Shown: positions 4,461 to 59,831 of the stretch, piece after piece
How the letters are laid out: the number at the start of each line of letters is the position of its first letter
Position numbering within the stretch: the first letter of the stretch is position 1
Source: Squalus acanthias
Lineage: Eukaryota
Reading direction: 5' to 3'
Assembly (NCBI GenBank): GCA_030390025.1
Contig: CM059432.1
Coordinates: 95,110,001 to 95,174,000 of the forward strand
Length of the DNA stretch: 64,000 bases
The notes under the pieces: generated by a model
The model's database searches: none
Seen by the model: the letters and a program-made list of their open reading frames with translations, nothing else
What the model was told of the DNA's origin: nothing
Made by a program: the position numbers and the translations under genes

Positions 4461-4955
4461 GTCATAGTCATAGTCATGGTCATAGAGTCATAACGGCACA
4501 GAAGGAGGACATTCGGACCATCGAGTCCACGCCGGCTCACTGCAGAGCAATCCAGTCAGTCCCACTCCCCCACTCTATCCCCGTAGCCCTGCAAGTTTAT
4601 TTCCCTCAAGTGACTATCCAGTTTCCCCTTGAAAACATTGAGGGCTGGATTTTGATACGAGGCGGGTTGGGGTCGTGTCATCCGCATTTCGTGTTATCCA
4701 CCCGCCTGCAATTGGATGTGGGAGATTGATGCGATTTTCACTTAATTGGGCAATTGAGTTCCAGCATGTGGGAACACATGAACCAATGAGTGGTTTCAGT
4801 CTGAAAGTCGCCTCTGATGATGTCATCATTGCAGGTCAGAGACTGCCTGGTCTCAGAGATTGCCTGGCCCTTGCTGTGAGAGGACCTGGATGCAAAATGA
4901 GCAGCATCTCAGAGAGAGAAGAGAGAGAGAGAGAAGAGAGAAGAGAGAAGAGAGA

Positions 4956-4986
<31 letters not shown>

Positions 4987-5845
4987 TTTTTTTTGCAACC
5001 AAGTCCTCCCAGGCAGTCTCTGAAGACATTCAATGCAGCAGCATCAGAGGCGACTTTCAGACCTAATACTACTACTACCTTCATCACATCTCCGTTGTAA
5101 TAGTGGACTTGCAGCTGACAGTCAGCTATCCACTTGTGCTCCCGCCAGGTTTCACTGGCGTGTTTCACATCAGGCGTACTTCACGTCGGAAAAGGGTTAA
5201 ACTAGTTAAAATGTTTCAAAATGGCATTACAGAGCCAATTTAGGGCTTGTTAAGGGCTTTAATGGCCTCTCCCGCCTCTTGGAGGCAGGACGGAGTCGAG
5301 AACCCTGCGACCGATTTTGTCAAAATTGCGTGGAGGCGGAATGGAGTCGGGATGGGGTCGGGACCCCCGAATCTGCAACTTTAACCCCCCACACGCCTCC
5401 AAACCCGACTCCATGGGTCATTGAAAATCCAGCCCTGAGTGTTTCCGCTTCCACCACTTCCGTTGGCAGCGAGTTCCAGGTCCTCACCACCCGCTGCGTA
5501 AAAAGGTTTTTCCTCACATCCCCCCGGTATCTCTTGCCCAAAACCTTAAATCTGTGTCCCCTAGTCCTTGTACCATCAACTAGTGGGAACAGCCTATCTC
5601 TGTCTAGCCTATCCAATCCCTTCATAATCTTGAACACCTCTATCAAATCACCCCTCAACCTCCTTTGCTCTAATGAAAACAAATCCAGCTTCTCCAACCT
5701 GTCCTTGTAGCTAAGATCTCCCATCCCCGGAATCATTCTGGCAAATGTCCTCTGCACCCTCTCAAGGGCCTTCACATCCTTCCTAAAGTGTGGTGACCAG
5801 AACTGGATGCAATACTCCAGTTGTGGCCTAACCAGCGCTTTATAA
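4461..5845 (-). mobile_element. Second CR1 3' fragment nested in the first
   Basis: (GTCATA)n tail; RT C-terminus YKALVRPQLEY...WNSLP (ORF 5320-5874); ATGTC duplicated at 4459-4463 and 5846-5850. Confidence 0.85.
4642..5435. mobile_element. Harbinger-type MITE (family E) with internal (GA)n
   Basis: TIR GGGCTGGATTTT/AAAATCCAGCCC; 3-bp TSD TGA/TGA; near-identical inverted copy at 25069-25836. Confidence 0.85.
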
Positions 5846-6842: not shown

Positions 6843-7667
6843 GGCCGGAATTTTGCCAGTGCTCAGGGGGCGAGTTTCGAGGCGGGACATCTGGCAAAAT
6901 CGCAAAGATTGACAGCGGGTCGGAAACCCGCTGTCAACCCACCTCCAATCAATCTTCTCAAGTGTCGGGTCCCCGATTTGTGCATGGACCCAACACCTAA
7001 CAGCGGGAAGAGGATTTTAGCCACTTAACTGCTTGTTAACAGGTTGTTAACAGGCAGTTAAGAGGCTTTTTGCAATTTTGACCGTTCTACTGTGGGCTTC
7101 CCGACGTCCGGACGCCAGGTAAGTGTGGTGTGCTGTGGGTCTACTGTAATGTTTCTGCATTGATGACAGCTGCAGGAGTGGTGTGAAGGATCCAATGGTG
7201 CACTGGTGAGTTTCAGAGGTAAGATAATGTTGGGAAAATCATTTTTAATGCATTTACACTTTTCTGTAGGTAACAAATTTTGATTTTTATGTGTACTCCC
7301 ACCTCATTGGGCGAACCTCTCTCACCAGTGACAGATCGCTTCTGTAACCTCACCTGCAGCTGCCATCTGTTTCAGCCTAAGGAGGGAGTCACTGGAGAGC
7401 CTGGGTGCAAAAGCTCACCTTTGTACAGTGATTGTCAGTGTTTGCAGCACCTCAATGCTGTCAAACACTGAGAAATCAGCTGTCAAAGAAAAATGTGCAT
7501 GGCCCCTTTAAGAAAACCAGCAGATGAAGCATCATCAACTGACGTCAGGGCGGGCTTAACAAGGCCAATTGACGCAAAATCGCGTTTGTGCATCTGATGT
7601 CATTGGGGGCGGGATTGGAAGGCAGCTGTCCCACACCCAAGCCGCCTCGTACCGAAAAATCGAGCCC
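6843..7667. mobile_element. Harbinger-type MITE (family D)
   Basis: Imperfect TIRs GGCCGGAATTTT/AAAATCGAGCCC; TSD AAA/AAT; splits CR1 ORF2; shares internal motifs with 19839 and 53801. Confidence 0.75.
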
Positions 7668-10093
7668 AATGTATTTGTTTAATTTCTCAACCATTTCCTT
7701 ATTCCCCATTTAATTTCTCCTGTCTCGGCCTGTAAGGGACCCACATTTACTTTCAGTAATCTTTTGCTTTTTACATACCTATAGAAGCTTTTACAATCTG
7801 TTTTTATGTCTCTCGCTAGTTTACTCTCATATTCTATTTTCCCTTTCTTTATCAATTTCTTGGTCCTCCTTTGCTGAATTCTAAAATCCTCCCAATCCTC
7901 AGGCTTACGGCTCTTTTTGGCAACATTATAAGCCTCTTCCTTTGATCTAATACTATCTTTAACTTCTCTTGTTAGCCACGGTTGGTTCACTTTTCCTGTG
8001 GGGTTTTTGTGCCTTAAAGGAATGTATATTTGTTGTAAATTATATATTAATTCTTTAAATGCTAGCCATTGTTGCCTACCGTCATACCTTTTAATGTAGT
8101 TTCCTAATCTACCATAGCCAACTCGCCCCTCATACCAACATAGTTTGCTTTATTTATATTTAAGACCCTAGTTTCGGATTTAACGAAATCACCTTCAAAC
8201 TTAATATAAAATTCTATCATATTATGGTCACTCTTCCCTAAGGGCCCCTTTACTACAAGGTTATTAATTAACCCTTTCTCATTGCACAATACTAGATCTA
8301 AAATAACCTGTTTCCTAGTTGGTTCCTCAACATACTGATCTCGAAAACTATCTTGTGTACATTCCATGAATTTGTCCTCCACACTATTACTGCAAATTTG
8401 GTTTGCCCAGTCTATATGTAGATTAAAGTCCCCCACGATTACTGTATTACCCTTGTTACATGCACCTCTAATTTCCTGATTTATATTCTGCCCTACATTA
8501 CTGCTGTTTGGGGGCCTATAAACAACTCTCACCAATGTTTTCTGCACCTTGCTGTTTCTTATCTCCACCCAAACTGATTCTACTTCTTGATTTTTGGAGC
8601 TAAGATCCTTTCTCTCTGTCTTTATCCCATCCTTTATTATCAGGGCTACCCCTCCTCCTTTTCCATTTTGCCTATCTCTTCTAAAAGTTAAGTATCCTGG
8701 AATATTTAGTTCCCAACCTTGGTCACTTTGCAACCACGTCTCCATAATGGCTATTAGATCAAACCTATTCATTTCTATCTCCGCTATGAATTCATCTATT
8801 TTGTTGCGAATGCTTTGCGCATTCAGATATAGTGCCTTTAGCTATGACTTTTTTATATTTTTCCCTGATGTCACCTTAGTCACTGATGCCCTATTACCCT
8901 CTGTCCTTTCCTGACCCACTCTGCTTATTTTCACCCAAAACTCAGCTTCGCTCTAGAGCCTTGACATTTCTCTTGCTACTTTTAAATTTACTCTTTCCTG
9001 AATCCTCCCACCCTCTCTTCATTAGTTTAAAGCCCTGTCAACTGCCCTAGTTATTTGATTTGCCAGGACACTGGTTCCAGCTCAGTTTAAGTGGAGCCCG
9101 TCCCAACGGAACAGCTCCCTCTTTCCCCAGTACTGGTGCCAGTGCCCCATGAAGCAAAACCCCTGCCTCCCACACCACTCTTTGAGCCACGCATTTAACC
9201 TTCTCATCTGCTTATCCCTAAAGTGGACAGTGGAGCTCCTCTGATGGCTTAATTGGTAAAGGCAGAGTGGAGCTCAACCACACAGATCAGAAGGTCTTAA
9301 GTTCCTAGGCTGTTGGATGATTTGACCTAGGTTGATGGTAGGGATATGACAATTGACCTCAGTAACCTTCCAACTGCTAGTCATTATCCAGTGACCCCTG
9401 CTGGAAAATGCACGTGTATGAACATTGGATAAGCATGACTCAAAATCAAATCTGTGATGAATGTCTAATGCATTGGAAGATTCATTTTTAGTTTAATCGT
9501 TAGACTGTCAACAGATTCAGGAGAAACTCCTGTTTCCCTGGGTGACCAGTTAAGCTTGTTTACAACTCACACAATGTGATATTGAAAAGAACATGGATAT
9601 ACTGCAATAATATTACTCCAATATCAAGAGCAGCTTCATCACTCCAATATCAACCTACAATTGATTCCATTTTGGAATTGGGAACAATTTAAGAAATATT
9701 GGGCTTTCATTGGCTGAAAACTGGATTTAAAGACATTTTTAAGCCAATTGAAAGCCCAGATATGCACATTAATATGGCTTCAGTGACCAGGTTAAACTTA
9801 GAAGAGGGCTGCGCAATGGCCCAGAAACCAAATAACTTCCAGAACAGTAAACTTGTCCATGGTGAAGGGTTGGGTATTTATCTTTATTACATTGAGTTAA
9901 TATTACAGTAACAACACTATTCCTGGTTAGCATTACTACTATCAATTAGGGTTTTTCACAGTGTGTGCAATTCCCTTGACCTGCCAACATTCTAAGGATT
10001 AAAAGCTTTTTTAAAATCCAATAATATTGTTAATAATGTGTGGTAAAGGCCTGCACTCTTACAAAGATTAGAACTGGCACAATTTAATAAAAT

Positions 10094-10830
10094 AGCTAAG
10101 ATTTTGCAGTCAGCGGCGAAAGGACGACACTCACCACTGACCTCGAAAAAAGCTGTCCACAAAGATTTAGCGGACTCTAGAGCGTCGATTTCCACTATTC
10201 CGACGTCACTTTGAATTTGGCACCATTTATAGGGGATCTGTGCCGTCCAGCAACAGGGCAGCTGATCAGCCAATCAGATTGAAGAATTCTCACAGACAGC
10301 AAAGCAGGAAGTGAAAAGCATGGAATATAATTCACATTTTAATCATTGTACCGAAAGCAAAATAAAGATTGGGACATACACATGGGATTAAGGGAGAAGC
10401 TGAAATTAATAAACAAACTTTGAAAAAATTATGCAATTTTTATATGTTCTTTTGAGGGAATGAGACTCCACATTTGTAAAATTAAGTTTTCAGGGCCGGA
10501 GAGGTTGTTCAACAGTAATTATGACTTAGTACACCGCTAAAAACTCAGTTACTCCTGCTTGAATAAGGCTTAACAATTTCATAGGTTTTTACAGTGAGAA
10601 TAGTGTGTAAAAAGTTGAAGTTCATGTCAAATCAGTGATTCTGTGTTGATTGCATCTGTGAAGATGGCACCAGTGCGCCCTATGGAGGAGCAGGGTATCA
10701 CTGACAGCAAATTCTAGATTTCTGCATTTAACTGCGCATGTGAGGACGCCAGAAGTTGCTGTCAGTTTTACAGAGTAATGACCGCGAACGCCAACAGTTT
10801 CACCATCATTACAACCACAAATTCTGGGCC
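10094..10830. mobile_element. Harbinger-type MITE (family A)
   Basis: Ends AGCTAAGATTTTGC / CAAATTCTGGGCC; TSD AAT/AGT; homologous to the copies at 24861 and 29337. Confidence 0.7.
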
Positions 10831-10977: not shown

Positions 10978-12640
10978 GCTATAGGAACATAGAAACTGCT
11001 GGACGAAAAGAGACCAAAGTCCATCTAGTTTGCCTTCTACCATCCTGGTAGTTGCATGATAAAACAATAATTGAGTTATTGACTGATCATAGCAATCAAT
11101 CTCTATCAATTAGTCTACAACCGACCCAGACATGACACAAGGAAAACCCCAGTGGTGGAGAGCTTTGGGAACCATAGGTCCAAAATCACCTGTTCCTTCC
11201 AAGCATGCTGCACTTACCACATGTCATGTCTCAAATTACTCATATACTGTATCCCAAAATGTTATTTTCTGAAAAAAATATATCTAATTTGCATTTGAAT
11301 GAATCAATACTAGTTGCTTCCACCATTTCCCTAGAGAGCCTGTTCCATAGATTGACCACTCACTCACTGACATAATGGGGGGAATTTTAACTCCCAAAAA
11401 TGGGTGGGTTTGGGTCGGGTGGGAAGTAAAAATGTAAAAATCTCAAACCCGAACCCAACCTGCCTCAAACCCGCACACTTCTGGTTTTAACGGAGATGGG
11501 ACTGGGGGCGGGCAACCAACCTGTTCTCAGGAGGCAGCTCCCTCAGTTAAATATTTTGATGAGGCTGCGTGCACCAGATATTTTCTGTTCCAGCTTTAAC
11601 GCTGGCCGGTCAGGTTTCCCGGGCTTCAGGAAACCCGGCAACTAAAGGGAGGTGAGGACTGCTGCATGGAACAGGTAAGTGTTTTTCCAGCACTGCTTGT
11701 CAGCCAGGAGGAGCAGGAGTGCTTCCCCTGGTCCCCTAAGCAAACCTGTAAACCTCCCCAGCGACGGATCCCCTCCACGATCCAATGCCGACCCGATGTC
11801 CTCCATGGCTCACGATCTGCTCCCGCTCCCTCCATGTCCTCCTAGGCTCCCCATGCTCTCCACGGGCCCCTGCAATCTTCTCCCCTGATCTCTCCTGACC
11901 CCTGCAATCTTCTCCCCTCCTCCCCAATCTCTCTGGCCCCTTCCACGATCTTCTCCCCTCCTCCCCTGATCTCTCAGGCCCCCCAATCAATGTCTCTCCC
12001 GACTCCCGATTTCTCCAGCCCCCATCGATGACCCCCCCGACACCCGATCTCTCCAGCTCCCCATCAATATCCCCCCACCCCCACCTCCTAATTCTCCCTC
12101 CCTCCTCTTCCTCCCCGTCTGCGGCCTGGTGCCGCAGGCCTACCCGCCCGACAGCCAGCCAGCCTCTCAATTTGTCTGGCTGTGGCCAGGAAACAGAGTC
12201 CAAAAATGGTAATCAGGTCCTACCATTAAATTTGGCAGGACCGAAGGGAAACCTGTTCTTCCGGGTTTCCCAACCACAAAACTGTCCCCCCCCCCCTCGC
12301 CTCCCCTATAATATTGGGGCCAATGACTCCGTAGATAAGTTTTAAATTTATGCCCCTTCCAGCGCAGGCCTTGTCCTCTGGTTCTTCTGTTCTGGACAAG
12401 GTGAAACAACTTGTAATGGTCTACATTATCTAATCCCTTTAGAATCCAAGAAACAGCAATCATATCACCTCTCAACCTTCTCTTTTCCATTGAGAACATG
12501 CCCAATTTACATAATTACTCATAATCCAATCTCTCCATCTCCTGAATCATTCTGGATGCTCTCTTCTATATCCTTTTAATAATTGCAATATCCTTTTAGA
12601 ACTGTGCACAGTATTTTCAGTGTGGTCGCACCAATGATTT
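10978..12640 (-). mobile_element. Older CR1 3' fragment split by a MITE
   Basis: ORF 12167-12505 (MEKRRLRGDMI..RTRG); CATAGAAA-type tail near 10980. Confidence 0.7.
11377..12321. mobile_element. Harbinger-type MITE (family B) with C-rich core
   Basis: Ends GGGGGGAATTTT / AATATTGGGGCC; perfect TSD AAT/AAT; related copy at 29617. Confidence 0.75.
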
Positions 12641-19723: not shown

Positions 19724-20760
19724 GGAAATACTTAGCAGGTCAGGCAACAGCAGTGGCGAGAGAAACAGAGTTAACGTTTCAGGTCTATGACCCTTTGGCA
19801 GACCCATTTCTGACGAAGGGTCATCGACCTGAAACACTGGGGGGAATTTTTCCAGCCCTGGGGAGGCGGGTATGGAGGCGGGACTGCCGGGAAAATGGCA
19901 GAAACTGGGAGCGGGTACCGACCCCGCTCCCAACCCGCCTCCGTGCCAACTTCCCGGGAGGCGGGTCCCCGACTTGCGCAGGGACCCGTCTCCTCAAGGC
20001 GGGAAGGGGATTAGAGCCAATTAACTGCCTGTTAACAGGTAGGGGCTTATCCCCATTTTACCCCTGCAAGTGTGGGCTTCCCGACGGCTGCGAACCTCGC
20101 CAGGGTCAGCGAGGCGAGCAGTGGGTCTGCGGGGGTAAGAGGGATCGAAAAGTCCGCTGTAGAGACGAGTGATGGGTGCAAGTGTGGAGAGGTAAGTATG
20201 AGAGGTGAGTGTAAAGTGTTGGAAAAAGTTTCCTTACCTTTGCTTCTTCCTGCAGGCTTCAACCCTTGGGGATCCGGAGGTGTCTCATCTCAACGGCAGA
20301 GATGACAGAATGACTGCTGCATTCTCAGATGCTTTCTGCTGAGGAGAGAGGTTTTGGTGAGCCTTCAGTACAGGGGCTCACCTTAGAAAAGAGATTGTCA
20401 GTGTTTGACAGCTTCTCAAAGCTGTCGAACTCTGACAATTCATCTGTCAAAAAATTTTCGACAGATGAAATGTCACACGCTGACGTCCTCTGTCACCGGC
20501 TTTCCCTTAATTGGCTGGCAAGCCCGCAGGGCGGGCTTAACAAGGTCAATCAAGGGAAAGTAGCATGGGTTGGCCAGACGTTGCTGGGGGCGGGACTGAA
20601 ACCCGACAACCAGCAGTCCCGCCCTCAATGCGCCCCCATTGACAAAATCCAGCTCATTAACTCTGTTTCTCTCTCCACAGATGCTGCCTGACCTGCTGAG
20701 TATTTCCAGCATTTTCTGTTTTTATTTCAGATTTCCAGCATCCACAGTATTTTGCTTTTG
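19724..20760. mobile_element. PLE family P1 inverted-repeat remnant interrupted by a MITE
   Basis: Same arms and tail as 313-548; GTCTCATTTTAATCT duplicated at 19709-19723 and 20760-20774; CTGACGA...GAAA core at 19810-19834. Confidence 0.8.
19839..20655. mobile_element. Harbinger-type MITE (family D)
   Basis: Ends GGGGGGAATTTT / AAAATCCAGCTC; TSD ACT/ATT. Confidence 0.78.
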
Positions 20761-24860: not shown

Positions 24861-25516
24861 GGCCCAGATTTTGCGGTCAGTGGTGAACGTTCATTACACT
24901 TCCAGTTGCTCACCGACTTTCTGTGAGCTTTTGCACTGTGACTTGGCATTTATTAGTGTCAAAACAGCGCAGCGCCTTCTACAGGGGATCTGAGACCTGT
25001 GTGAACAGGGAAAGCAACGGTGTGTCTCCTCAACCAATCAGATTGAAGAATCCTCACTGAGACACACAGGGCTGTATTTTCAATGACCCGTGGGGTCGGG
25101 TTTGGAGGCGTGTGGGGGGTTAAAATTTCAGATTCGCGGGTCCCGACCCCATCCCGACTCCAACCCGCCTCCACGCAATTTTGACAAAATCGGTCGCGGG
25201 GTTCCCGACTCCGTCCCGCCTCCAAGAGGCAGGAGAGGCCATTAAAGCCCTTAACAAGCCCTAAATTGGCTCTGTAATGCCATTTTGAAACGTTTTAGCT
25301 AGTTTAACCCTTTTCCGACGTGAAGTACGCCTGATGTGAAACACGCCAGTGAAACCTGGCGGGAGCACAGTGGATAGCTGACTATCAGCTGCAGGTCCAC
25401 TATTACAACGGAGATGTGATGAAGGTAGTAGTAGTATTAGGTCTGAAAGTTGCCTCTGATGCTGCTGCATTGAATGTCTTCAGAGACTGCCTGGGAGGAC
25501 TTGGTTGCAAAAAAAT

Positions 25517-25554
<38 letters not shown>

Positions 25555-26381
25555 GTCTCTCTCTCTCTCTCTCTCTCTGCATCCAGGTCCACTCACAGCA
25601 AAAGCCAGGCAATCTCTGAGACCAGGCAGTCAGTCTCTGACCTGCAATGATGACATCATCAGAGGCGACTTTCAGACTGAAACCACTAATTGACTCATGG
25701 GTTCCCACATGCTGGAACTCAATTGCCCAATTAAGTGAAAATTGCATCATTCATCCACATTAATCTGGAGTCGGGGGGGGCAACACGAAATGCGGGTAAC
25801 ACGACCCCAACCCAACCCCAAGACAAAATCCAGCCCGCAGAGTCTAAACCAGGAAGTGCAAGTTGCAATTCAATGTAAAATCATGTACAGAAAGCAAAAT
25901 AAAGAGAGGGAAAGATAAATGGGATTAAGAGAGAGAGAGAGATAAAAGAGACAGAAAGATAAAGTAAAATTAAAAAAAATGTTTTTTTAAATCTCCAACA
26001 AAATTAAAATCTGAAGGAATGAGACTCCACACTTTTAAAAGTAAATTTTCAGTGCTAGAGAGGTTGTTTGGCAGTAATTAAGACTTTTCACGCTGTTAGA
26101 AATTCACTTACTCTTGAATGGACCAAGTCCTAACTTTTTCTCGCGTGTTTAGTGCATATCTAGTGGGTAAGTACCACAAATGCACGCCGTTCCATGTATT
26201 TGAATGCTGAGTCTGAGGTGTAGCGAAGCTTCTGGAGAAGCAGGGAATCTCGGATAGCAACTTCCTAGTTTCCACGTTGAACTGCGCATGTGCGGACGCC
26301 GGAAGTTAATGTCCGATTTACTCCTTAATAATGGCGAGCACTGATAACATCACCATTATTTGTACCAGAAAAAATGTGTGC
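24861..26381. mobile_element. Harbinger-type MITE (family A) hosting a family E MITE
   Basis: Left end GGCCCAGATTTTGC preceded by AAT; colinear with 10094-10830; right end degraded. Confidence 0.7.
25069..25836. mobile_element. Harbinger-type MITE (family E), inverted relative to 4642-5435
   Basis: TIR GGGCTGTATTTT/AAAATCCAGCCC; TSD ACA/GCA (CpG-type difference); internal (CT)n. Confidence 0.85.
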
Positions 26382-29336
26382 ATCCAGTGGGCGAGACTCC
26401 CTGCCAGGAGCACAAAGTCAGAAAATCATCCCTTATATTTAAAAAGTTGTTCCTTTTCCACATTCGCCTGGAGTATTATTTTTTTTTTAAGTTTAAGCTG
26501 CAGCGGAATCTGTGACTTAGATCATCCCACCCTCCTGGATGAAAGAAGGCCTGGCAGTGAGTGATAACAGTGGTGATCTAGCTGGAGGAAAGCAATGGGA
26601 AAATAAGCACTCCAATCTGGAGCTTTGAAAAAATCCTTTGAAGTACATTCTCTTTATGAATGGTGTTTGGCGGCATTTTTTAAACTTGCACGCAAACATG
26701 TGATGTCATAATGTATATTGCACTAAAATATGTCAGCGCTTCACCTGCACCAGATGTCATTATAATAGAAATGCGTCATGGCTCTTCTACCTTTACTCTC
26801 ATACAAAAGATATGCCAGGTAACCAATTGTTGATGTCTTTTTACCCAATTTGGGGAAACGCTAATTTTGTTTTACGCATTTTTAGCCCTTGCAGGTCCTT
26901 CCACTGAGGCAAAGGTCAAAAGGGGTGTGACAGGCTATCTCCTCCCAGGCCACAGCTGATGCCACTCCTAGCCATCCACTTGGACAGTGTTATCTAATAG
27001 AAATTTCTGTCTAGCCACAAGTGTGGCTACAGTTACACTGTTTTAGACACATGCACTAATTTTAGTAAAAAAACACCTTACATACACTCACACAATGCAG
27101 GCCAATGTACTTCACGTGTCTATTTACTTAACAAACATCTACCACCATTCAGTAACCAAGGAAATAAAGCACTCACAACGATCAAAAATCCACTCGCAAA
27201 CTCTGCTTTTCGTCTAACCATTTTATCAATAAACAAGCAAAAAGTTTAAAGTAGACATGCATACACCTTGCAAATACGAGTATTGAGATCACATGCCTAA
27301 CGATGCTGTCTATTACTCCTTTTTTTAATTTACTTATCAAAAATGCAGTTAGTCACATTGGATTCCCAATTATCCACATATGACTAGTGGCTAACGTATT
27401 GGACAACACTGCACGAGGAGATACCCAACAGCAGCACACTGAGCACTATGGGTCTGATTTTTTAACCCCCTCATGGGCATGAAAGTCAGCTGAAATCACC
27501 TCTGCTCTGTGGCACTGCATCAGAATGCTCCAGTGCACAGCGCAACCAGCTAAATAGTTTTCCCTAAAGACATGCACCTAGAAAGAAAAATGTTTTAGTC
27601 CTCAGCAGAGGCAGCAGTATAGGGGTTAAAAGAATCAGTACCTTAATTGGTCTCAGAAAATATTGGTTCGACAGTGGCATCAACCAGTGAAAGTGAAAGT
27701 ATCACCAACAGTTCCCACATAACTCTAATACTTGCACCTTTCTAACATTCTTTCCTGACAACCACCTCCTTTAATGTGATCCAGACATTTACCAGAAAAT
27801 GCATGTTGACCCCGCCAGTGCTTAAAGCAAGAATGCCCAGCTCAGTGAAGTGAGATAGGTTACAGATCTGCCTTTAGTACTGTTAGAATTCAGACTCATT
27901 GCTTCATGACAGCTTTAGGAACAGATTTGCCTTTGTTGTTTTAGTGACATTTTTAATTAGTTCAAACTCTTTACAAAAACACAAACCAGATTAATGACTG
28001 TTATAAATAACAGCCACTATATGCTTCTTGCACCTGCAGAAAATCAAGCTCATTGTTATATTTTCCTATTTCTAATGATACCGCGTTAAGCAATAAAATG
28101 CTTTATTATCTTCTGTAGGCACAATTTTCCAACTGACATCTGTCTGAGCCTTCACAGATTTTAAATATTTTCTCCAGTAGCAATTACATCATAGTCTAAC
28201 AATCATTACATTACATATACACCTAACATGCAGATTTAATCTATTGAGGACATTTTGAAAAACTTATAACAAGATGTTCGGCTTCACTCAGCCTGGAAGC
28301 CTTTCATTGTTTTATAGCAGAGCTGCTCGTGTGACTCAACAGTGTCACAAAGACAATGGAACATGAAAGGAAATGTTTTAATAAAGACAGCACAACAAAC
28401 ACACCTATCGATAATCTGACAGCAATAATGAGCTCAACGGTATGCGTTCTTGCATATTTTATTAAAATAGGTTCTCTTTAAGTACTTATTTCTCCCTGTT
28501 CCCAAAAGGCATTAACATCATAAAGCTCCTATACTATTTGTGATGTTAGTTATTGCCTAAGTGGCAGGGATAAATGAAGAACTGAATGTCTTACTTGAAG
28601 TGTTCCAGATTGTTCCAATTTCAGTTTATTTGCTAAGTATCCAAATGACACTTCAATATATTCTTGTTAATAAAATGATGGACCCATATACAAAGGAACA
28701 AAACATCCCTGTACCAACAAACTGCAACTACACACTGGAAAGCACAAAATAATTGCAGACAACATCGCAAATATAAATCATTCTCAAAACTTACAAGGCA
28801 AAACAGTTTACATTAGTAGCAAAGTCTCAATTGGAATGAATGAATCGCCCCTACATTGTAAAGGTAAGTACAAAATGGAGCTTCAAGCAGCATTACCTAT
28901 TGTAACTGACACCAGCAGTATTTCAGTCCCAAAAAGCTGCAGGCGAAAATCGATTGGGCCTCTTCAGAAACTGATGCTCCAAACCATGTGTTAGTCAAAT
29001 AAATAGGAAAGCAATGTTTATTTGACTGATGCGTAATTTAAAAAATCTCTTACAAAAAGTCCCACTGGATTTTCATCTGCACCTTTTTTTGTGACTTGCT
29101 GCTGGTGTCGGCTACAATGCGAGAAATACTTAAAACTTCACTCAGTACTTATCACATCGATGTAGTGGAGCGGAGTTTATGGTCATTCATTCATTCCAAC
29201 TCAGACATGTTTGTTTACCTCTTTTGTTAAAATGTATTCTATAAGATATTGTACATGTAGATTTTGTGTGAATTAAACCCGTGCACCGACCAGGATGACC
29301 TGAGAAAGTGCAGCATGATACCAGGCAAGGGGCAAT

Positions 29337-29616
29337 GGCCCAGATTTTGCGGTCAGGAGCGAACATAGAAACATAGGAGCACGAGTAGGCCATTCGGCCC
29401 TTCGAGCCTGCTCCGCCATTCAATATGATCAACGACGCTCACTGTTCATTATACTTGCAGCTGCCCACAGTCTTTTCGTGGGCTTTTGAGCAGCAACTTA
29501 GGGTGATCGGGCGTCTGAAACAGCGTGGCACCCTCAACAGGGGATCTGTGTGAATAAGGCATGCAACAGCTGTCTCCCCAACCAATCAGATTGAAGAATC
29601 CTCACTGAGACATGCA
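29337..29616. mobile_element. Family A MITE left part, with a short CR1-tail insertion (about 29362-29430)
   Basis: GGCCCAGATTTTGC preceded by AAT; colinear with 24861-25068. Confidence 0.7.
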
Positions 29617-30319
29617 GGGCTGAATCTTAACTCCCACAAACGGGTGGGTTGGGGTTGTGCCAGAGATTAATATTCATAAAATCTGAAACAGGAACCCAAC
29701 CCGCCTTGAACCCAGCCACTTCTGGTTTTAATGGAGGCGCGACAAGGAGCTGAGGCTGCCTGCCTTCATTTTAACAGTAATTCTATTTTTAATTCATGTC
29801 AGCCGGGTTTCCCAGGCCTCGGGAACACGGCAGGTGAAAAGAGGCAAGAAGGGCTGAATCCATGAGGTAAGTACCTTTACAGCACTGCTTGTGGCCCAGG
29901 AGGAGCAGAAGTGTTTCCTCCTGGCCCAACCAGCTACCCAGTAAACCCCACCCCCCACCCCACAACCCCGGCCGCGATCTGTCTGATCCCCCAACCACCA
30001 TCGGGCCCCCCCGACCACCATCGGACCACGCCCCCTGATCACGGGACGACCCCCTCCCCGAAATCGCACCCCTACCGCGATCGCCCCCCCCCCCACCCCG
30101 TGATTAGACCTACCCGTGGTTGGACCCCCCCCCCCCCGCGACCAGGACCCCTCATACAATTGGCACCCCTCTGCCATTGGGACCCCCTTGTGATTGGACC
30201 ACTCCCGCGATTGGGTCCCCCCACAATAGGGAGCCCCCCCACCCATGATCGGGACACCCTCCCCACGATCTCCGAAACCGACCTTGTCAGCCGGCTCCAT
30301 GGTGTCAAATTTCACGGCC
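29617..30319. mobile_element. Family B MITE inserted in a family A MITE; right end uncertain
   Basis: GGGCTGAATCTTAACTCCC start matches 11377; C-rich core; possible right TIR AAATTTCACGGCC. Confidence 0.65.
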
Positions 30320-30593
30320 AGAATGTTAGTGCACAGAAGCAGGCCATTTGGCCCATCAAGTCTGCGCCAGTCTTTTTCTGTACATAAGCCACCTTGTCTA
30401 TTCCTATCCTCCTGCTCGGTCCCAATGCCCTCTAATCTAGAACTATGGCAGTTCACAGCACAGAAGGAGGCCATTCATTGTGCCTGTGCCTGCTAGAGTG
30501 ATCCAAAACTAATCCCACTGCCTCGCTTTCTCCACATAGTCTTGTATCCTCATCTGCTTCAAATATTTATCCAAATTTCCTTTAAAACTCCTA

Positions 30594-31487
30594 GGGGTAG
30601 AAATTAGGTCGCGCCCCATTTGGGGCGCAAATATCGTCTGGACGCAAATATTAGCGCCTGGCGCTAATTATCGGCACTGACTGGAAACTTCACTTTTACC
30701 GCCCCGGGAGGTGAGTGGAGCGCTAAAGCAGGCGCTGCACACCTGTCTTAAGGCGCAAAGGCCAAGGAGTGAGGCGCTACCTCAGAGCGCTGGCGAAGCT
30801 CATGTAATGTCAGTCAGCAATGGAACACACACACAATGGCACGGTCCAGTTCTTAAAGGGGATGGTTAATCTTGCTTTCCATCCACATCCTGTTCATTGC
30901 AGCCTTGAATCTCGGCCTGGAGAGACTTGCACATCAAATGTGCTGGAAAGAACAATGGAGAGTACCAGGCAAAGAGCTCAGAGTGCAGCTCCCACAGTCT
31001 CTGCTAAATCGATACAAGGAATGGCAAATCAAAATGAACCTGCAAAGTGCTGCTCAGTACCCAAAACTCCTTCCCACAACGTTGAATCTCTCCAGAAGTC
31101 TCTCCCTCTCTCTCTCAGAATGCGTAGTTCAAAAATGCCACCAACAATAAAAGACAGGAAGAGGCCCCCTTTAAATAGCGCCCCCCCCCAGCCCCACAGC
31201 GATTGATAGCGTTCCAGTCTTCTGGTCGTTGGATGCACCAGGCGGTAAGGCAGGGGGCGCCACTCAATTTCCACTCCGGGGCGCCACAAGGGCGTTGCAC
31301 CATGGAATGACGTCACAATCTGCGCGCGCAGGTGGTCGCAGCGGTAAGTTTTAGCGCCGCCGCACAATCTCTAGTTAAGTTCCCGAGCGGCGCAAACATC
31401 GCTGCGCCTGGGAGTTAGCGGCTTTGCGCCCCATTAGCGCCCTCTTAAGGCGCTAACGGGAGACGCAACCAACTGAATTTTTACCCT
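30594..31487 (-). mobile_element. Harbinger-derived MITE (family F)
   Basis: TIR GGGGTAGAAATT/AATTTTTACCCT; TSD CTA/CTA; right end is the reverse complement of the 33151 terminus; many AGCGCC/GGCGCT subterminal motifs. Confidence 0.82.
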
Positions 31488-33150: not shown

Positions 33151-34455
33151 GGGGGAAAAATTCAGTTGGTTAGCGCCTCCAGTTATCGCCTGGCAGGAGC
33201 ACTAACCGGGCGCTGATGCAGTAGCGCCGGGGCCGCACGCCAAATCCGGCCCCCCCGTAGTGCCGTCGCTACAAGTTACTGCCGGGGACCTCAACGCCAG
33301 GCAGATCGTGACGTCAGTGAGCGACGCTCACTGGGCGCCCGCTCTGCAAAATTCATTGTCGCTCCCTGCCTTAGCACCTCGCTCCGACAGCGACAGGGAG
33401 AAGAGGCATCAAGCAGGTGGATGCCGGCTCCAGGGGTGGTATTTAAAGGCATCCTCAGTAATGAATCGTCGCTGTCAGGTTAGTGCTGTTTCACTGCTTC
33501 CTTGTCAGTTTGACATTGTGCAACAGTTTAATTCAGTCATTTAAAGGTTATTTAGTATCAGGAGTGTTGTGGCTACTAACAAATGTAACATTTATTCACA
33601 CAACATATCAAAGTGCTACACTTGGTTATATTAATGGGGGCTGTACTGGCAGTCGATCTCGCCCTCCAGGATCTACGGCAGAGGGAGCGGAGGCAGCGAG
33701 AAAGACTGGAACATGTGGCCAGAAGGAAGAGAAGGGCCATGAGGGCTCTCAACAGGAGGACTTACGCTCCGAGGGCATTTCGAGAGCACTTCTCCTACCT
33801 CCAATTAAGCAAGGAGCAGTGTATTAGAAGGCTCTGCTTCACCAAGGAGATGGTCACAGAAATCTGCCACCTCCTGCAACCAGACCTCAAGCCTCAGATC
33901 AGGGCGACCATGGCTCTCTCAGTGGCAGTCAAGGTCACCGTCGCTCTCAATTTCTTTGCCAGCGGATCATTCTCATCGGCAACAGGAGACATAGCTAACA
34001 TCTTGCAGTTCGCCGTCCATCGCTGCATCCGGGAGCTCACAGAGGCTCTGTACAGTAGGAGAAGGGACTACATTTCCTTCCCCATCACCAGAGAGAAGCA
34101 GGACGAACGTGCATGTGGCTTTGCCAGGATAGTGGGATTCCCCATGGTGCAGGGCGCCATTGACTGCACCCACGTGGCTTTGCGGGCACCGCATAACAAT
34201 CCTGAGATCTTCCGTAATCTCAAAGTCTACCACTCACTTATTGTGCAGTTGGTGTGCGACCACTGACAGCGAATCCTCAATGTCAATGCCCGCTATCCTG
34301 GCAGCAGCCACGATGCCTTCATCCTGCGCCAGCACTCTTCCAGCCACCACATCATGCTCACAGCTGGCTGGTCGGAGACAAGGACTATCCGTCTTTACCT
34401 GGCTCATGACTTCCCTCTGCAAACCCAACACTCCTGCCCAGCACTCATATAATGA
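33151..34455 (+). mobile_element. PIF/Harbinger DNA transposon, left part
   Basis: Left TIR GGGGGAAAAATTCAGTTG; TATTTAAAGG upstream of the transposase; no right end found. Confidence 0.85.
33634..34455 (+). pseudogene. Harbinger DDE transposase (HARBI1-like), disrupted
   Basis: VTVALNFFASGS, GFPMVQGAIDCTHV, in-frame TGA at 34264-34266, then ARYPGSSHDAFIL; frameshifted WLVGDKDY; truncated. Confidence 0.9.
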
Positions 34456-43219: not shown

Positions 43220-43371
43220 GTTGTAGATCTTGACTTTTTGTGATAGTGTAAAACGGGTGATAGCGAGTCGGCATTGACCTCAATGGACATAAAAATCATG
43301 AGAGATGTAAAATGGGCTGCCGATTTATTATGATGCGTTTTACACTATCACACACAGTCAGGATCTACCCC
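43220..43371. mobile_element. Short hairpin MITE (family C, Harbinger-type)
   Basis: Long TIRs GTAGATCTTGAC...GATAGTGTAAAACG / CGTTTTACACTATC...GTCAGGATCTACCCC; TSD AAT/AAT. Confidence 0.78.
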
Positions 43372-49210: not shown

Positions 49211-50048
49211 AGTGTAGTAATTTGCAGTAAACACCTAAACCATAACTACCTGACATACATTTTTGAAAGAAGCATAGATCCTGACGTTGGCAAAAAAATT
49301 TTTATTTTTGTTATTGATTCAAGTCTCTGCATTATTTAAAGACTGCTGCAACACAGCAAATACAATCAATGATATTAGCTTCAAAAGTATAAAGAAGTTG
49401 TTTCCTTTACCACATACAATAGTTTTTTCCATGTTCTGCATCAAGTGATAACAGAGTTGTGGAAATGGTTTTCATATTACAGTGATCATAAAATACATTA
49501 TGGCTTATTACTCTCACTATATCCATTTGACAATATTTTGGCTGCCATTCATTTGGCATTTCTTTTCAAAGTTGAGCAAATTCACAAAACCTCTGTAAAT
49601 TTGGTAAACACATGTTGCTGGAAATCCCATAACTACACATATGTGACTAGAAGTTGCTGTTACTGCGTTAACGGATGAAAGCTTAACACCTTCTTATGAC
49701 ATTCCTCTGACCACTATTTTAACACAATTAACCTACTTATTTTAAATGGGTTAAAACATATGCTAAAATAACAGACAGAGGAATGTCACGTTAAATATTC
49801 ATTTGCTGATATTACAACAGTAATTTCTAGGCGATGTGTGTTCAGAGTTCAGATGCTGTTCATCTAGAAAATAATGTGCAGTGTATCTAAAGAAAGTAAT
49901 CTGAGAAAAACATGTTTTGAATGGGTTGTGGATTACATATTTGCTTTAAAAATGTTCTACATGTGTCCCCCTTGGCAGAAGCCTGGCTATCTTTAATTAT
50001 GAGAAGTCGCACAACACCAGGTTATAGTCCAACAGATTTATTTAAAAT

Positions 50049-50086
50049 TACAAGCTTTCGGAGCTATCCTGCCCCTTCTTCAGGTA
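50049..50086 (-). ncRNA. Minimal hammerhead ribozyme motif (inverted arm copy)
   Basis: Exact reverse complement of 50773-50810. Confidence 0.72.
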
Positions 50087-50413
50087 GAGTTACTGTGAGA
50101 CAATCTACCAGAATTCACAGAATATAAACACAGAGAAAATGCAGAGATTCAATCTTTCCCTACATCAAAGACACACTAAGAGCACAGCCAAGACAATGAG
50201 ATGTGTCCCAGGGGGTCCAACGTGTCAAAACACCTGCTGGCTGCATATCCTCTCCATTTGGGTTTGTTTCTTGTGTTTGTTTCTTGTGTTTGTTTTTTTA
50301 AAAAGCTGGAAAGACCGGCAACGATGTCAAGTCATGTTCTGTAGCGTGACATGAACCCGATATCCCGATTGAGGCCGTCCTCATGAGTGCGGAACTTGGC
50401 TATCAGTTTCTGC

Positions 50414-50527
50414 CTTCGGGATACACGACAACGCAAAATCATCGAGCAGAAACTGATAGCCAAGTTCCGCACTCATGAGGACGGCCTCAATCGGGATATC
50501 GGGTTCATGTCACGCTACAGAACGTGA
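50414..50527 (+). pseudogene. Penelope GIY-YIG endonuclease C-terminus
   Basis: Manual translation LRDTRQRKIIEQKLIAKFRTHEDGLNRDIGFMSRYRT*, matching the E...I...T...GLN.D motif. Too short for the ORF track. Confidence 0.82.
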
Positions 50528-50772
50528 CTTGACATCGTTGCCGGTCTTTCCAGCTTTTTAAAAAAACAAACACAAGAAACAAACACAAGAAACAAACCCA
50601 AATGGAGAGGATATGCAGCCAGCAGGTGTTTTGACATGTTGGACCCCCTGGGACACATCTCATTGTCTTGGCTGTGCTCTTAGTGTGTCTTTGATGTAGG
50701 GAAAGATTGAATCTCTGCATTTTCTCTGTGTTTATATTCTGTGAATTCTGGAAGATTGTCTCACAGTAACTC

Positions 50773-50810
50773 TACCTGAAGAAGGGGCAGGATAGCTCCG
50801 AAAGCTTGTA
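50773..50810 (+). ncRNA. Minimal hammerhead ribozyme motif
   Basis: UAC-CUGAAGA-A-GGGGC(AGGAUA)GCUCC-GAAA-GC-UU-GUA. Confidence 0.75.
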
Positions 50811-51964
50811 ATTTTAAATAAATCTGTTGGACTATAACCTGGTGTTGTGCGACTTCTCATTTTTGTCCACCCCAGTCCAACGCCGGCATCTCCATATCTT
50901 TAATTAGTGGACTCTTGTGAGAGTTGGCATAGCTGAGATTGCCTCTTTGTGATCAAACAGGTGATTCTGAGCTGGTTTGAGCATGTGAGAGAATGAATGA
51001 TTGATTATATATAAATAACATTGCTAGATAATGAAGGTAGACGTTAGAATATGTTCACGCATAGACTATGCATATAGCTGGAAAATAAGTGGAGCTGATA
51101 GTTGCAAGATATGCTGCATAAATGAAATGAAATGCTGTAAAAACCAGGAATCTTCTAGCCCGTGTCCCATTTTGACCATTTTTTGTACTGGCGAACTGGG
51201 AGTTTTGCATTGCATAAAAGAATCTAAACTTTCCAACTTTTTTTATAAATCCTTCTTCATTTCTAACTGACACTGAATCACTGGATCAATCTGAAACATC
51301 GACCAGAAAAAGGACATTTTCCTGCAAGTAAAGTGCACCTGGACTACAGGAAATCTTTCTATTTACAGTTTACCTTTGTTTTAATTAGCATTTCAAAAGG
51401 GGCACAACTCTATTAACATAGTATAATGGTCCATTCATACTGCAGATTTTGTTTTGATTTGATGCAAAAATCAGCACAGAATCTGGAAAATAGCTGCAAG
51501 ATAACTAATGATTTCAGGGGGATTTGGTTTAACAAAAGTGGTATGAGATAGTCCCGCAGCACTTTGAGGCCACTGCGCCAGCATAATTGCAACCAGTATG
51601 AAGCAAACTTAAAAAAATTCAAACTTTATTTTTAAACTTTGCAATGTTAGTCATCCGTTGATTGGTCAGCTCATCGGTAATGTTAAAAGTTTTACTGGTA
51701 TTTAGGTGTTTATGAGTACCTAGGTCCAAGTATAAAAATTCAGAGCTTCTATTTGCATAGTGGTGTGGAGCCAATAGTGTTACTCAATGCTGACAGCTTG
51801 CATGGGTCTTGAGCAGATACCATTATAAAGTCACTCGTTGCAGTATAATTGGGGCATAAATATCAATGGGTTTCCCCTTAATAGAATCCCCCTCCCTGCG
51901 TACTGGACTGCATGAAGTAATGTGAATTTAATGTATTACACTGCATTTTTAACCACACAGACAA

Positions 51965-53655: not shown

Positions 53656-54735
53656 CCTATAACTCCTGCCCTCCACCCTATCACAGACCTTTCCCTTTTG
53701 ATCTTTTCCTACCCCCTTTTTCCTGGCTCTGCACTTGCTTAAAAGTTCTTCAACTCTAACATCTTCCAGTTCTGATCAAAGGTCATCAACCTGAAACATA
53801 GGGCTGGATTTTCCAAGCCCCGAGGAGGCGGGCATGGAGGCGGGACAGCCGGTAAACTCGGAGAAAGTGGGGGCGGATGGCAAAGCCGCCCCCATCCCGC
53901 CTCCGTGCCCTTTTGCCAGGAGGCGGGAAGATGTGCAGCTTCGAGTCCCGTCTCCTGGAGGCGGAAAAGGCATTTAATCCTCTTAACTGCCTGTTAACAG
54001 CTAGTTAACAGGCAGAAAAAAGGATTAGTGCCATTTTACCTTCACAGGTGAAGGCTTCCCAACCTTGGAGAACCCTGCCGGGTTGGAGGAGACGTGGAGG
54101 AGGTCTGTGGTGGTCGGAGGCACCTGGAAGTAAGGTGTAGAGGTGAGTGATGGGTGCAAGTGTGGAGTGGTAAGTATGCAAGGTGAGTGATAAGTTTTAA
54201 AAAGTGTTCACTTACCTTGTTTTCTTCCTACAGCCTTTAGCCGCGGTGGATCGGGAGAGCCGACATCCTGCTTGTCAATTTCACAGAATGACTGTTGGAA
54301 CCTCCGTTCCAACAACCATGTGAAATTTACAAATTTGAAAGGTTTGATGAGTCCTGAACACAAGGACTCATCAAACTAAAGAGAATGTCAGTGTTTGACA
54401 GCTTCACAGAGCTGTCAAACGCTGACATTTCTTCTTTCAAGAAGTCTTGACAGATAGCACGTCTGATGTTGACGTGTTCTGTCAGTGACTTCCTCCCTAA
54501 TTGGCCTGCTGAGCCCGCAGGGCGGGCTTAACAAGCTCAATCAGGGGAAAATTCCTCTGGTTGGTCAGGTGAGGATGGAGGTGGGACATTGACACGCCTC
54601 CAACTCACCTCCATTCACAAAATCCAGCCCATTAACTCTGTTTCTCTCTCCACATATGCTGCCTGATCTACTGAGTGTTTCCAGCATTTTCTGTTTTTAC
54701 TTCAGATTTCCTGCATCTGCAGTATTTTGCTTTTG
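53656..54735 (+). mobile_element. PLE family P1 pLTR (longer, single orientation) interrupted by a MITE
   Basis: Pyrimidine-rich upstream part; degenerate core CTGATCA...GAAA at 53772-53796; resumes at 54631 with the P1 arm and tail. Confidence 0.75.
53801..54630. mobile_element. Harbinger-type MITE (family D)
   Basis: Perfect 12-bp TIR GGGCTGGATTTT/AAAATCCAGCCC; TSD ATA/ATT. Confidence 0.85.
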
Positions 54736-58030: not shown

Positions 58031-59831
58031 GACCTAGAAATTAGATTGCATAGTACCCGTTGTTTGGGTGCTATGGGTCCTGTTTTGAGTTGAAAATGGG
58101 GTCCGAGCAGTGCACGCACAAGTCTGGTGCGGGCCACGCCGGATGCCAACTTGGTGAGGCTGGTAGCGTTGGTGCTGGAAGTGAGCGCCAGAAGTATGTA
58201 GAGTAGGTGCTGCCATTTTCATCTTCAACGCTGGAAGTAACGCCCTGTGTTAACTTCACACAGCTGAACCTGCATTCTGCAGCTGCAAGGACCCCCACCA
58301 GAGATATTTAAAGGGATCATCAACCACTCACAGGTCAGTTGCTGATTAATTTCTATTGGCTCTGTGTAAGTTTGTGGAAGTGTTTGCAGCTTTCTAGAGT
58401 TGTTTAAAGTTGGTGAGGTGACAGGGAGTGGTGCTGCAAGTGGAGAAGGCCTTGCTTCTGACTTCAAGGGTTCTGGTCAGACCACTTGCTCCCAGTCATG
58501 GGTGCTCTAGTTGTCATCCCTCTTGGCCTGCAGCATGACAGGGAGATGGAGCCAAGGCAGCAAAGAAGGGGACAAGCTGCTTACAGAGGGAGGAGGTGGA
58601 GGGGGAGAAGGGCTTTCAGCAGGAGGCCTTACCCACCTACAGTCTTCCGAGAGCAATTCTCTTACTTCAGCCTGAGCCAGGAGCAGTGTGTGAGGCGTCT
58701 GCATTTTACAAAGGAGGTGTTCACAGAACTCTGCCACCTCTTGCAACCAGACCTGCAGCCTCACACCAGGGCAAGGACAGCGCTGCCAGTGGCTGTGAAG
58801 GTGACCGTGGCCCTGAATTTCTTTGCGTAGGGATCCTTCCAGGCTGGAGCAGGTGACATCTGTAACATCTCCCATTTCGCCATCCACTGCTGCATAAGAG
58901 AGGTGACAGACGCTCTTTATGCCAGGAGAGGGACTTCATAGGCTTCTCTCTGACCAGAGAGAAGCAGGCGGAGTGTGCATGTGGCTTTGCCAGGATAGCG
59001 GGCTTCCCCATGGTGCAGGGCACCATCGACTGCACGCACATAGCTTTGCGGGCAAGGTATCTAAATGCTGAGATGTACCGCAACCGTAAAGGTTACCACT
59101 CATTGAATGTGCAGTTGGTGTACGACCATACTTAGCACATCATGATGGTGAATGCCCGGTATCCTGGCAGCAGTCATGATGCTTTTATTCTGCCCCAGTC
59201 CGCTGCTCCCACAGTCTTTGAGTCACCAAGACAAACCAGAGGCTGGCTACTGGGTGACAAGGACTATCTGCTGACCACTTGGCTCATGACCCCACTCCTT
59301 AACCCAACCACACGTGGACGGCATGTGTATGATGAAAGTCATGCTGCTACATGGAATTTGATAGAGCAGACCATTGGCGTTCTTAAACAACACTTCCACT
59401 GCCTGGACCGCTCTGGAGTAGTCTTGCAGTGCTCACCAGAATGTGTCTCAAGATTCGTCATGGTCTGCTGCATGCTCCACAACCTGGCCATCATGAGGGC
59501 CCAGCCCTTGCCACCAGGAATATGGCGACCAGCTGAGAAGTAGGAGGAAGCGGGAGAGGAGGAGGAGGAAAAGGAGAAGGAGAAAGAGGAGGATGTGGAA
59601 GAGAGAAGCAACCCAGACAGCCCCTTTCTGCCTGGGCTGTCCGTGATTGACTCATCCAACTGTTGTATGAGTGAACACAACCCCAATTTCCCAATCAACA
59701 ATAGTCCCACACCTTACCTTCCCTCTTACTTTCCCACATTACAACAGTGACTACACTCCAAAAGTACTTGTGGGTTGCTAGCGCTTTGCGATCCCTGCGC
59801 TTGTTTTCAGGAGCTAATGAATTTCTAGGCC
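58031..59831 (+). mobile_element. PIF/Harbinger transposon with both ends, transposase only
   Basis: TIR GACCTAGAAATT/AATTTCTAGGCC; TSD TAG/TAG. Confidence 0.9.
58498..59543 (+). pseudogene. Harbinger DDE transposase (HARBI1-like), disrupted
   Basis: VTVALNFFA* (stop 58828-58830), frameshift, IDCTH, YPGSSHDAFIL, LLGDKDY, IEQTIGVLK, CCMLHN; acidic tract follows. Confidence 0.9.

Follow-up and report, generated by a model that had tools for sequence, protein, structure and literature searches.

Two Harbinger-type MITEs begin at the same base of separate copies of a third repeat family in Squalus acanthias, a coincidence probably guided by a palindromic target motif

The window analysed here, a stretch of 64,000 nucleotides of Squalus acanthias DNA (contig CM059432.1 of GCA_030390025.1), is repeat-rich, vertebrate-type DNA, with LINE tails and palindromic repeats of shark-like appearance, in which we delimited three copies of a repeat termed family A (positions are those of the window, with strand). 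The first copy, A1, is split: its left part (24861–25068, +) ends in the left copy of a duplicated triplet (25066–25068), whilst its right part (25840–26382, +) can be aligned with A3 from 25840 to the end of A3 and has a degenerate right terminus at which the duplication belonging to A1 itself is unrecognisable. Only the left half of the second copy, A2, is present (29337–29616, +); it opens with the same terminal repeat as A1 (at 29337 and 24861, respectively), is 79% identical to the left half of A1, and contains a 70-bp 3′ tail piece of a LINE (29361–29431, −), similar to six further tail copies in the window, which we take to be of CR1 type. The third copy, A3 (10094–10830, +), was absent from the account given in the original prediction; it is complete, diverged (73%) and empty, with triplets AAT and AGT at its ends and approximately 10 nt of the target site missing.

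Immediately upstream of the target, all three copies of family A share an identical, partly palindromic 18-nt block that contains CCAAT (25034–25051 in A1, +). Over the last 47 nt ahead of the junction A1 and A2 agree at 44 positions (94%), compared to 75% farther upstream, and they have in common a 34-nt exact run that ends 4 nt ahead of the triplet. A 24-nt pattern derived from family A had no match in metagenome contigs. An 18-nt pattern gave 78 hits in metagenome contigs and nine in viral contigs; none of these 87 was convincingly A-like beyond the pattern itself, and they are ascribed to chance.

Interrupting A1 is a copy of a second family, E1 (25069–25836, +), a 768-bp miniature inverted-repeat transposable element (MITE) with 12-bp terminal repeats that match at 11 of 12 positions and an internal (CT)n tract. 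The duplicated triplet recurs to its right as GCA (25837–25839, +), agreeing with the left copy (ACA) at two of three bases, and E1 is a complete nested insertion in A1. Another copy, E2 (4642–5435, −), lies at an unrelated site with a perfect 3-bp duplication and flanks that fit the target motif described below; E1 and E2 are 95.8% identical over the first 450 nt and 88.8% over the last 255.

At A2, a MITE of a third family, B1 (29617–30319, +), can be aligned up to 29952 with a second, complete copy, B2 (11377–12321, +; triplets AAT/AAT, at a non-A site with motif-fitting flanks), to which it is 73.5% identical, and then continues through a C-rich stretch to a 12-mer that weakly resembles a terminus and ends at 30319. 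These last 12 nt are the best terminus-like string within 29950–30600, yet they score only 7.4, against 7.1–18.6 in the 24 training termini (0.08% of positions equal this value), and the score of the B1/B2 right-end alignment was reached by 13 of 200 shuffles. Directly beyond lies a CR1-type tail (30320–30368, −), cut flush at the triplet AGA to form a second motif-type junction that differs from the left triplet of B1 (GCA), the two triplets lying in different hosts. Both junctions fit the motif, with half-site scores of 4.1–5.6 and 4.1–4.8 (maximum 5.5–7.0). No right half of A2 was found downstream of B1 in the window, where the next-best match was a purine tract, and a hidden right half was rejected. 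Because B1 lacks a second junction in A, its insertion is unproven by duplication, and the absence of a right half of A2, together with the different right triplet, makes a later deletion or fusion likely.

The two left junctions were compared through the 14-mer CCTCACTGAGACAY, which, in a scan of the full 64 kb with up to two mismatches, was found at 25052 and 29600 and at no other position. At both sites it is followed by three further bases, ACA ahead of E1 and GCA ahead of B1, and then by a GGGCTG-type terminus, at 25069 for E and 29617 for B, placing the left ends of E1 and B1 on the identical column of their hosts. The original claim that E and B share their starting base in separate A copies was thus confirmed at the left ends. 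As nesting, the claim stands in full for E, which is complete in A1 with A resuming at 25840, whereas B is joined to A2 by its left end only. If insertion were uniform, a coincidence at one base would have a chance of approximately 0.0013; the coincidence observed exceeds this expectation, yet is expected under a target motif.

By their sequence features, B and E look like PIF/Harbinger-type MITEs. The elements are 700–950 bp long and have no transposase gene; their terminal inverted repeats start with G or A and match at 11/12 positions in E1 and 13/14 in E2, with counts by eye of 9/12 in A1, 8/12 in A3 and 7/12 in B2. A 3-bp duplication is exact in E2 and B2 (3/3 bases each) and partial in E1 and A3 (2/3 each), and is not seen at B1, where GCA and AGA lie in different hosts, or at A1, whose right end has decayed. 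Open reading frames of at least 80 aa beginning with ATG (one over A1/E1 and two over A2/B1) cross (CT)n or C-rich tracts; none is transposase-like by eye, and a coding function was rejected for all of them.

Two broken relics of Harbinger-type transposases were also detected in the window (33619–34455, +, and 58483–59335, +), neither tied to A, B or E. They are 72% identical over 67 aa and both carry a GAIDCTH-type motif, which we take as the label of a Harbinger transposase. One piece, from the second relic, gave a weak match to DDE_Tnp_4 (E = 1.9e-4; 21.6 bits, under the cut-off of 24.8), and the other had no match in Pfam or PDB. The ends of the relics are class-like but not alignable with A, B or E past the terminus.

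An extended palindromic target preference was found around the triplet, consisting of an A four bases ahead of it and a pyrimidine directly ahead, mirrored on the other side. The motif was trained within this window on ten elements not inserted in A (seven complete, three by the left end only), a small, hand-delimited set of 17 half-sites in which A stands at −4 in 17/17 and a pyrimidine at −1 in 16/17. The motif was already known when the left end at 58031 was set, and comparison of terminal repeats led to a one-base shift of two boundaries, the earlier counts being 15/17 and 14/17. In a wider set of 15 elements, which adds the ends of A itself and two more elements, each of the two positions agrees in 22/25; among the misfits are A1 and A2, each at its left end, and the element at 9701 on one side. 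The site at 53801 was counted jointly with that at 19839 in the narrower set and separately in the wider one. Candidates near 1039, 18614, 27450, 28824, 31729, 49635, 52786, 53494 and 55829, the ends of which could not be fixed, lie outside these counts. Within the window the motif also borders elements that inserted into non-repeat DNA, CR1 pieces and a Penelope-like repeat. The Penelope-like repeat (250–900) had no hammerhead match in Rfam, where only sub-threshold families, mostly of hairpin type, were returned.

When the motif was applied to A1 emptied of its insertion, the site used by E and B ranked first of approximately 740 positions under all matrix settings (3 + 6 + 2), including the wider set (first of 741 and first of 737), and it remained first with the E and B copies left out of training. 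Across the window, between 0 and 7 of approximately 64,000 positions score as high. By the minimal four-base rule on its own, 19 of 740 positions in A would qualify. If insertion is driven by the matrix, the modelled chance that two hits coincide rises from 0.0013 under uniformity to 0.10–0.85, values that are rough model output rather than counts. The proposal of sequence-directed nesting is therefore supported, the site being first in A under a motif drawn from other elements. The accompanying idea that family A acts as a landing pad found no such support: the motif also flanks insertions outside A, and the motif-less A3 is empty. Scoring 2.2–4.2 in the matrix, compared to 8.1–11.9 for A1, A3 keeps the 18-nt block without the target motif and is uninserted, which indicates, from this one copy, that the motif and not family A is the attractor.

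Whether B and E are one lineage bears on the independence of the two insertions. Their interiors could not be aligned, as shuffled sequences scored as high in 55 of 60 cases for E1 against B1 and in 12 of 60 for E1 against B2. Over the first 130 nt, E and B scored above single-base shuffles in three of four pairs (0/200 each) and weakly in the fourth (8/200). The original description of the two as unrelated is thus upheld for the interiors but not for this left portion. Treating B and E as one family was rejected on the unrelated interiors; alignment, the check proposed for a single lineage, points instead to distinct families of one clade. The insertions of E and B are likely to be independent: E1 and E2 are 95.8% alike, against 79% for the hosts A1 and A2, so that E1 most probably inserted well after its host had diverged from A2. 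This late arrival disfavours a composite ancestor and agrees with the original preference for independent insertions, E1 being far younger than the A1/A2 split.

We consider it probable, with good confidence, that two probably independent PIF/Harbinger-type cut-and-paste insertions chose the best match to the palindromic motif in A for its sequence alone; E and B would coincide at one base because that base is A's best match to the palindromic flank. A special role for family A, in which a feature beyond the short motif (the CCAAT block, a bound protein or DNA structure) attracts related transposases, would account for two of three A copies in the window being struck, both at the same base, and for the identity of the 18-nt block in three copies and the 34-nt run common to A1 and A2. 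It is nevertheless decidedly unlikely, given that the motif alone puts the site first and flanks insertions in non-A DNA, and that A3 has the block but neither motif nor insertion. The likeness of A1 and A2 in the last 47 nt (44/47) is left unexplained by the motif; it is what a shared recent tract would produce, and with the related left ends of B and E it speaks for a single ancestral insertion in an A founder that was copied as a composite, after which the inserted element of one copy diverged or gave way to another. Against such a history, E1 matches E2 from end to end, including both termini, at about 89–96% although E2 lies at an unrelated site, B1 resembles B2 and not E, and the E and B interiors cannot be aligned; that an entire element was exchanged by way of a terminal match of 12 nt would be implausible, and we regard the composite as highly improbable.

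Adjacent deletion is a mechanism of other cut-and-paste elements, and at A2 it would mean that B sat originally in the downstream CR1 tail until a transposase linked the left end of B to the A2 target and the intervening DNA was deleted. The mismatched triplets GCA and AGA, the fit of both B1 junctions to the motif and the joint absence of the A2 right half and the end of the CR1 tail are all in keeping with this. However, the right terminus of B1 is weak (7.4), the origin of this end from B is unsupported by the shuffles (13/200), and a plain deletion between two elements yields the same picture, leaving the scenario very unlikely. It would alter the history of the locus and leave the choice of target unchanged. 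That the coincidence arose by chance, or that A2 carries an assembly join, is extremely unlikely: there are only two events and the A2/B1 locus is known from the assembly alone, but uniform insertion would give a chance of about 0.0013, and at the top-ranked site each junction directly abuts a terminal repeat.

Under the favoured reading of motif-guided insertion, Harbinger-type transposases supplied in trans would read the palindromic flank around a free triplet, of which family A appears to carry a near-ideal copy. B would have struck A2 early and E would have struck A1 late, and CpG decay of one ancestral site could have given rise to the ACA/GCA and C/T differences. A later deletion, or a fusion made by transposase, may then have joined the left part of B to the junction with the CR1 tail and removed the right half of A2.

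The arrangement resembles that of zebrafish Harbinger3_DR and Harbinger3N_DR, in which, according to the available text of the two sources, a 3-bp duplication lies inside a palindromic target of about 15 bp (PMC3016246, PMC2836001). The former gives a palindromic 15-bp consensus for Harbinger3_DR (PMC3016246) and the latter puts the extended PIF/Harbinger target at 9 bp for plants and 15 bp for vertebrates (PMC2836001). The termini here likewise begin with GG(G), and the Harbinger3_DR flanks, as given there, agree at 10/12 positions with those of E2 and of the element at 6843, at 8/12 with the A site, and at 5–6/12 with other sites. Taken alone, these flanks fit at least 8/12 at 10 of 745 positions in A, three of them better than the E/B site. 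Unlike Harbinger3_DR as described in these sources, the central triplet is free (ACA/GCA, TGA, AAT, CTA) rather than CWG, the shared core is shorter and no transposase is linked to the MITEs.

The duplications also set these elements beside the PHIS groups NuwaI, NuwaII and Pangu, which are defined by their triplets (Han et al. 2015, PMC4482050, here from the available text); in common with those groups they have 3-bp duplications other than TWA and termini starting with GG or GGG. Triplets at complete elements in the window are ACA/GCA, TGA, AAT, AAA/AAT, ACT/ATT, CTA and AAT/AAG. Neither the TWA duplication of strict PIF/Harbinger elements, as given by Han et al. (2015), nor the CWG duplication of NuwaI occurs among the complete elements delimited. 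The ANT duplication of Pangu is seen for B2, A3 and the elements at 19839 and 43220, and not for E. Of the NuwaII target, C/TNA/G, E2 has the C and then TCA, but is followed by A, whilst in E1 an RCA centre lies between C and G. In contrast to any single PHIS group as set out in PMC4482050, the window thus combines Pangu-like B2 and A3 with a partly NuwaII-like E2 and RCA at E1; no group fits every element, and the supplements of that paper may contain closer families.

Nested MITEs have been described in plants. In the available text of PMC5172404, independent insertions are reported to have placed more than 10% of rice MITEs in multimers, and certain families are targeted by many others; Jiang and Wessler (2001), as cited there, described nested Tourist and Stowaway MITEs in rice and maize, with Ditto targeted by many families. 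The present case is similar in placing a MITE within a MITE by independent insertion, and differs from the nests summarised in that source, where insertion at a shared base goes unmentioned, in that the host is of vertebrate type and a motif explains the site. Amongst cartilaginous fishes, no Harbinger was found in the elephant shark, and other species were recommended for study (PMC9179366, available text). A literature search on Harbinger targets or nesting in sharks and other cartilaginous fishes, on MITE nesting in general and on adjacent deletion, covering sources other than subscription papers and Repbase, returned nothing on these families.

The target preference is of a known kind and opens no new mechanism. 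It is unlikely that family A, as a mobile Harbinger MITE, keeps a near-perfect target for the transposases of its own clade within its most conserved block. As a carrier of targets, A would spread landing sites genome-wide, take up more than its share of insertions from sister families and give rise to deletions made by transposase, perhaps including the loss of the right half of A2. The locus would acquire greater importance only if A copies were struck beyond what the motif predicts. As it stands, it offers a clean, small example of a strict target motif leading different DNA transposons to one and the same base in a dispersed repeat. Since same-site insertion can be driven by the motif, it is not readable as shared ancestry for Harbinger-type elements in this genome; such insertions are markers prone to homoplasy and readily mislead repeat annotation.

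A palindromic Penelope-like repeat carries two related MITEs (19839-20655 and 53801-54630, 74% alike), each in a different copy but at the same triplet. The repeat flanks around them are 85-92% alike, and four empty copies of this insertion site lie near 395, 434, 793 and 19783. The site agrees with the motif seen at the A site, the base at which families E and B begin in two copies of the host MITE family A (a palindromic flank with an A four bases before the triplet and a pyrimidine just before it, mirrored opposite). The original prediction counted the A site as a second same-nucleotide insertion within the window, and this pair is probably the first case that it implied. Four pieces of the Penelope-like repeat form nested near-perfect inverted repeats at 316-794; the repeat has what we take to be a hammerhead-like look, and no Rfam match to a hammerhead was found in it.

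A small palindromic MITE (43220-43371), bounded by a perfect AAT duplication, has target flanks that closely resemble the A site. Two decayed Harbinger-type elements, both with broken transposase frames, were also present (33151-34455 and 58031-59335), the left part of the former being common to the MITE at 30594-31487. Elsewhere, 49999-50860 holds an inverted repeat of 415 nt, 99% complementary, with arms 32 nt apart.

B1, the family B element whose left end lies at the A site, meets a CR1-type tail on its right side (30307-30325). This junction is also of the motif type, but the right triplet of B1 is unlike its left; a deletion between two Harbinger junctions is a possible origin. Directly after the decayed right end of A1, the family A copy from 24861, a short stretch (26383-26440) closes with a terminus-like string, perhaps the end of an additional element.

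Exact blocks persist between 73%-diverged copies of family A, the right half of the family included: an 18-nt CCAAT block (25034-25051, 29582-29599 and 10270-10287) and further runs of 16, 16 and 13 nt. Some resemble what we presume to be CCAAT, ETS and NRF1 promoter motifs, and these blocks may perhaps represent a promoter remnant of the parent element.
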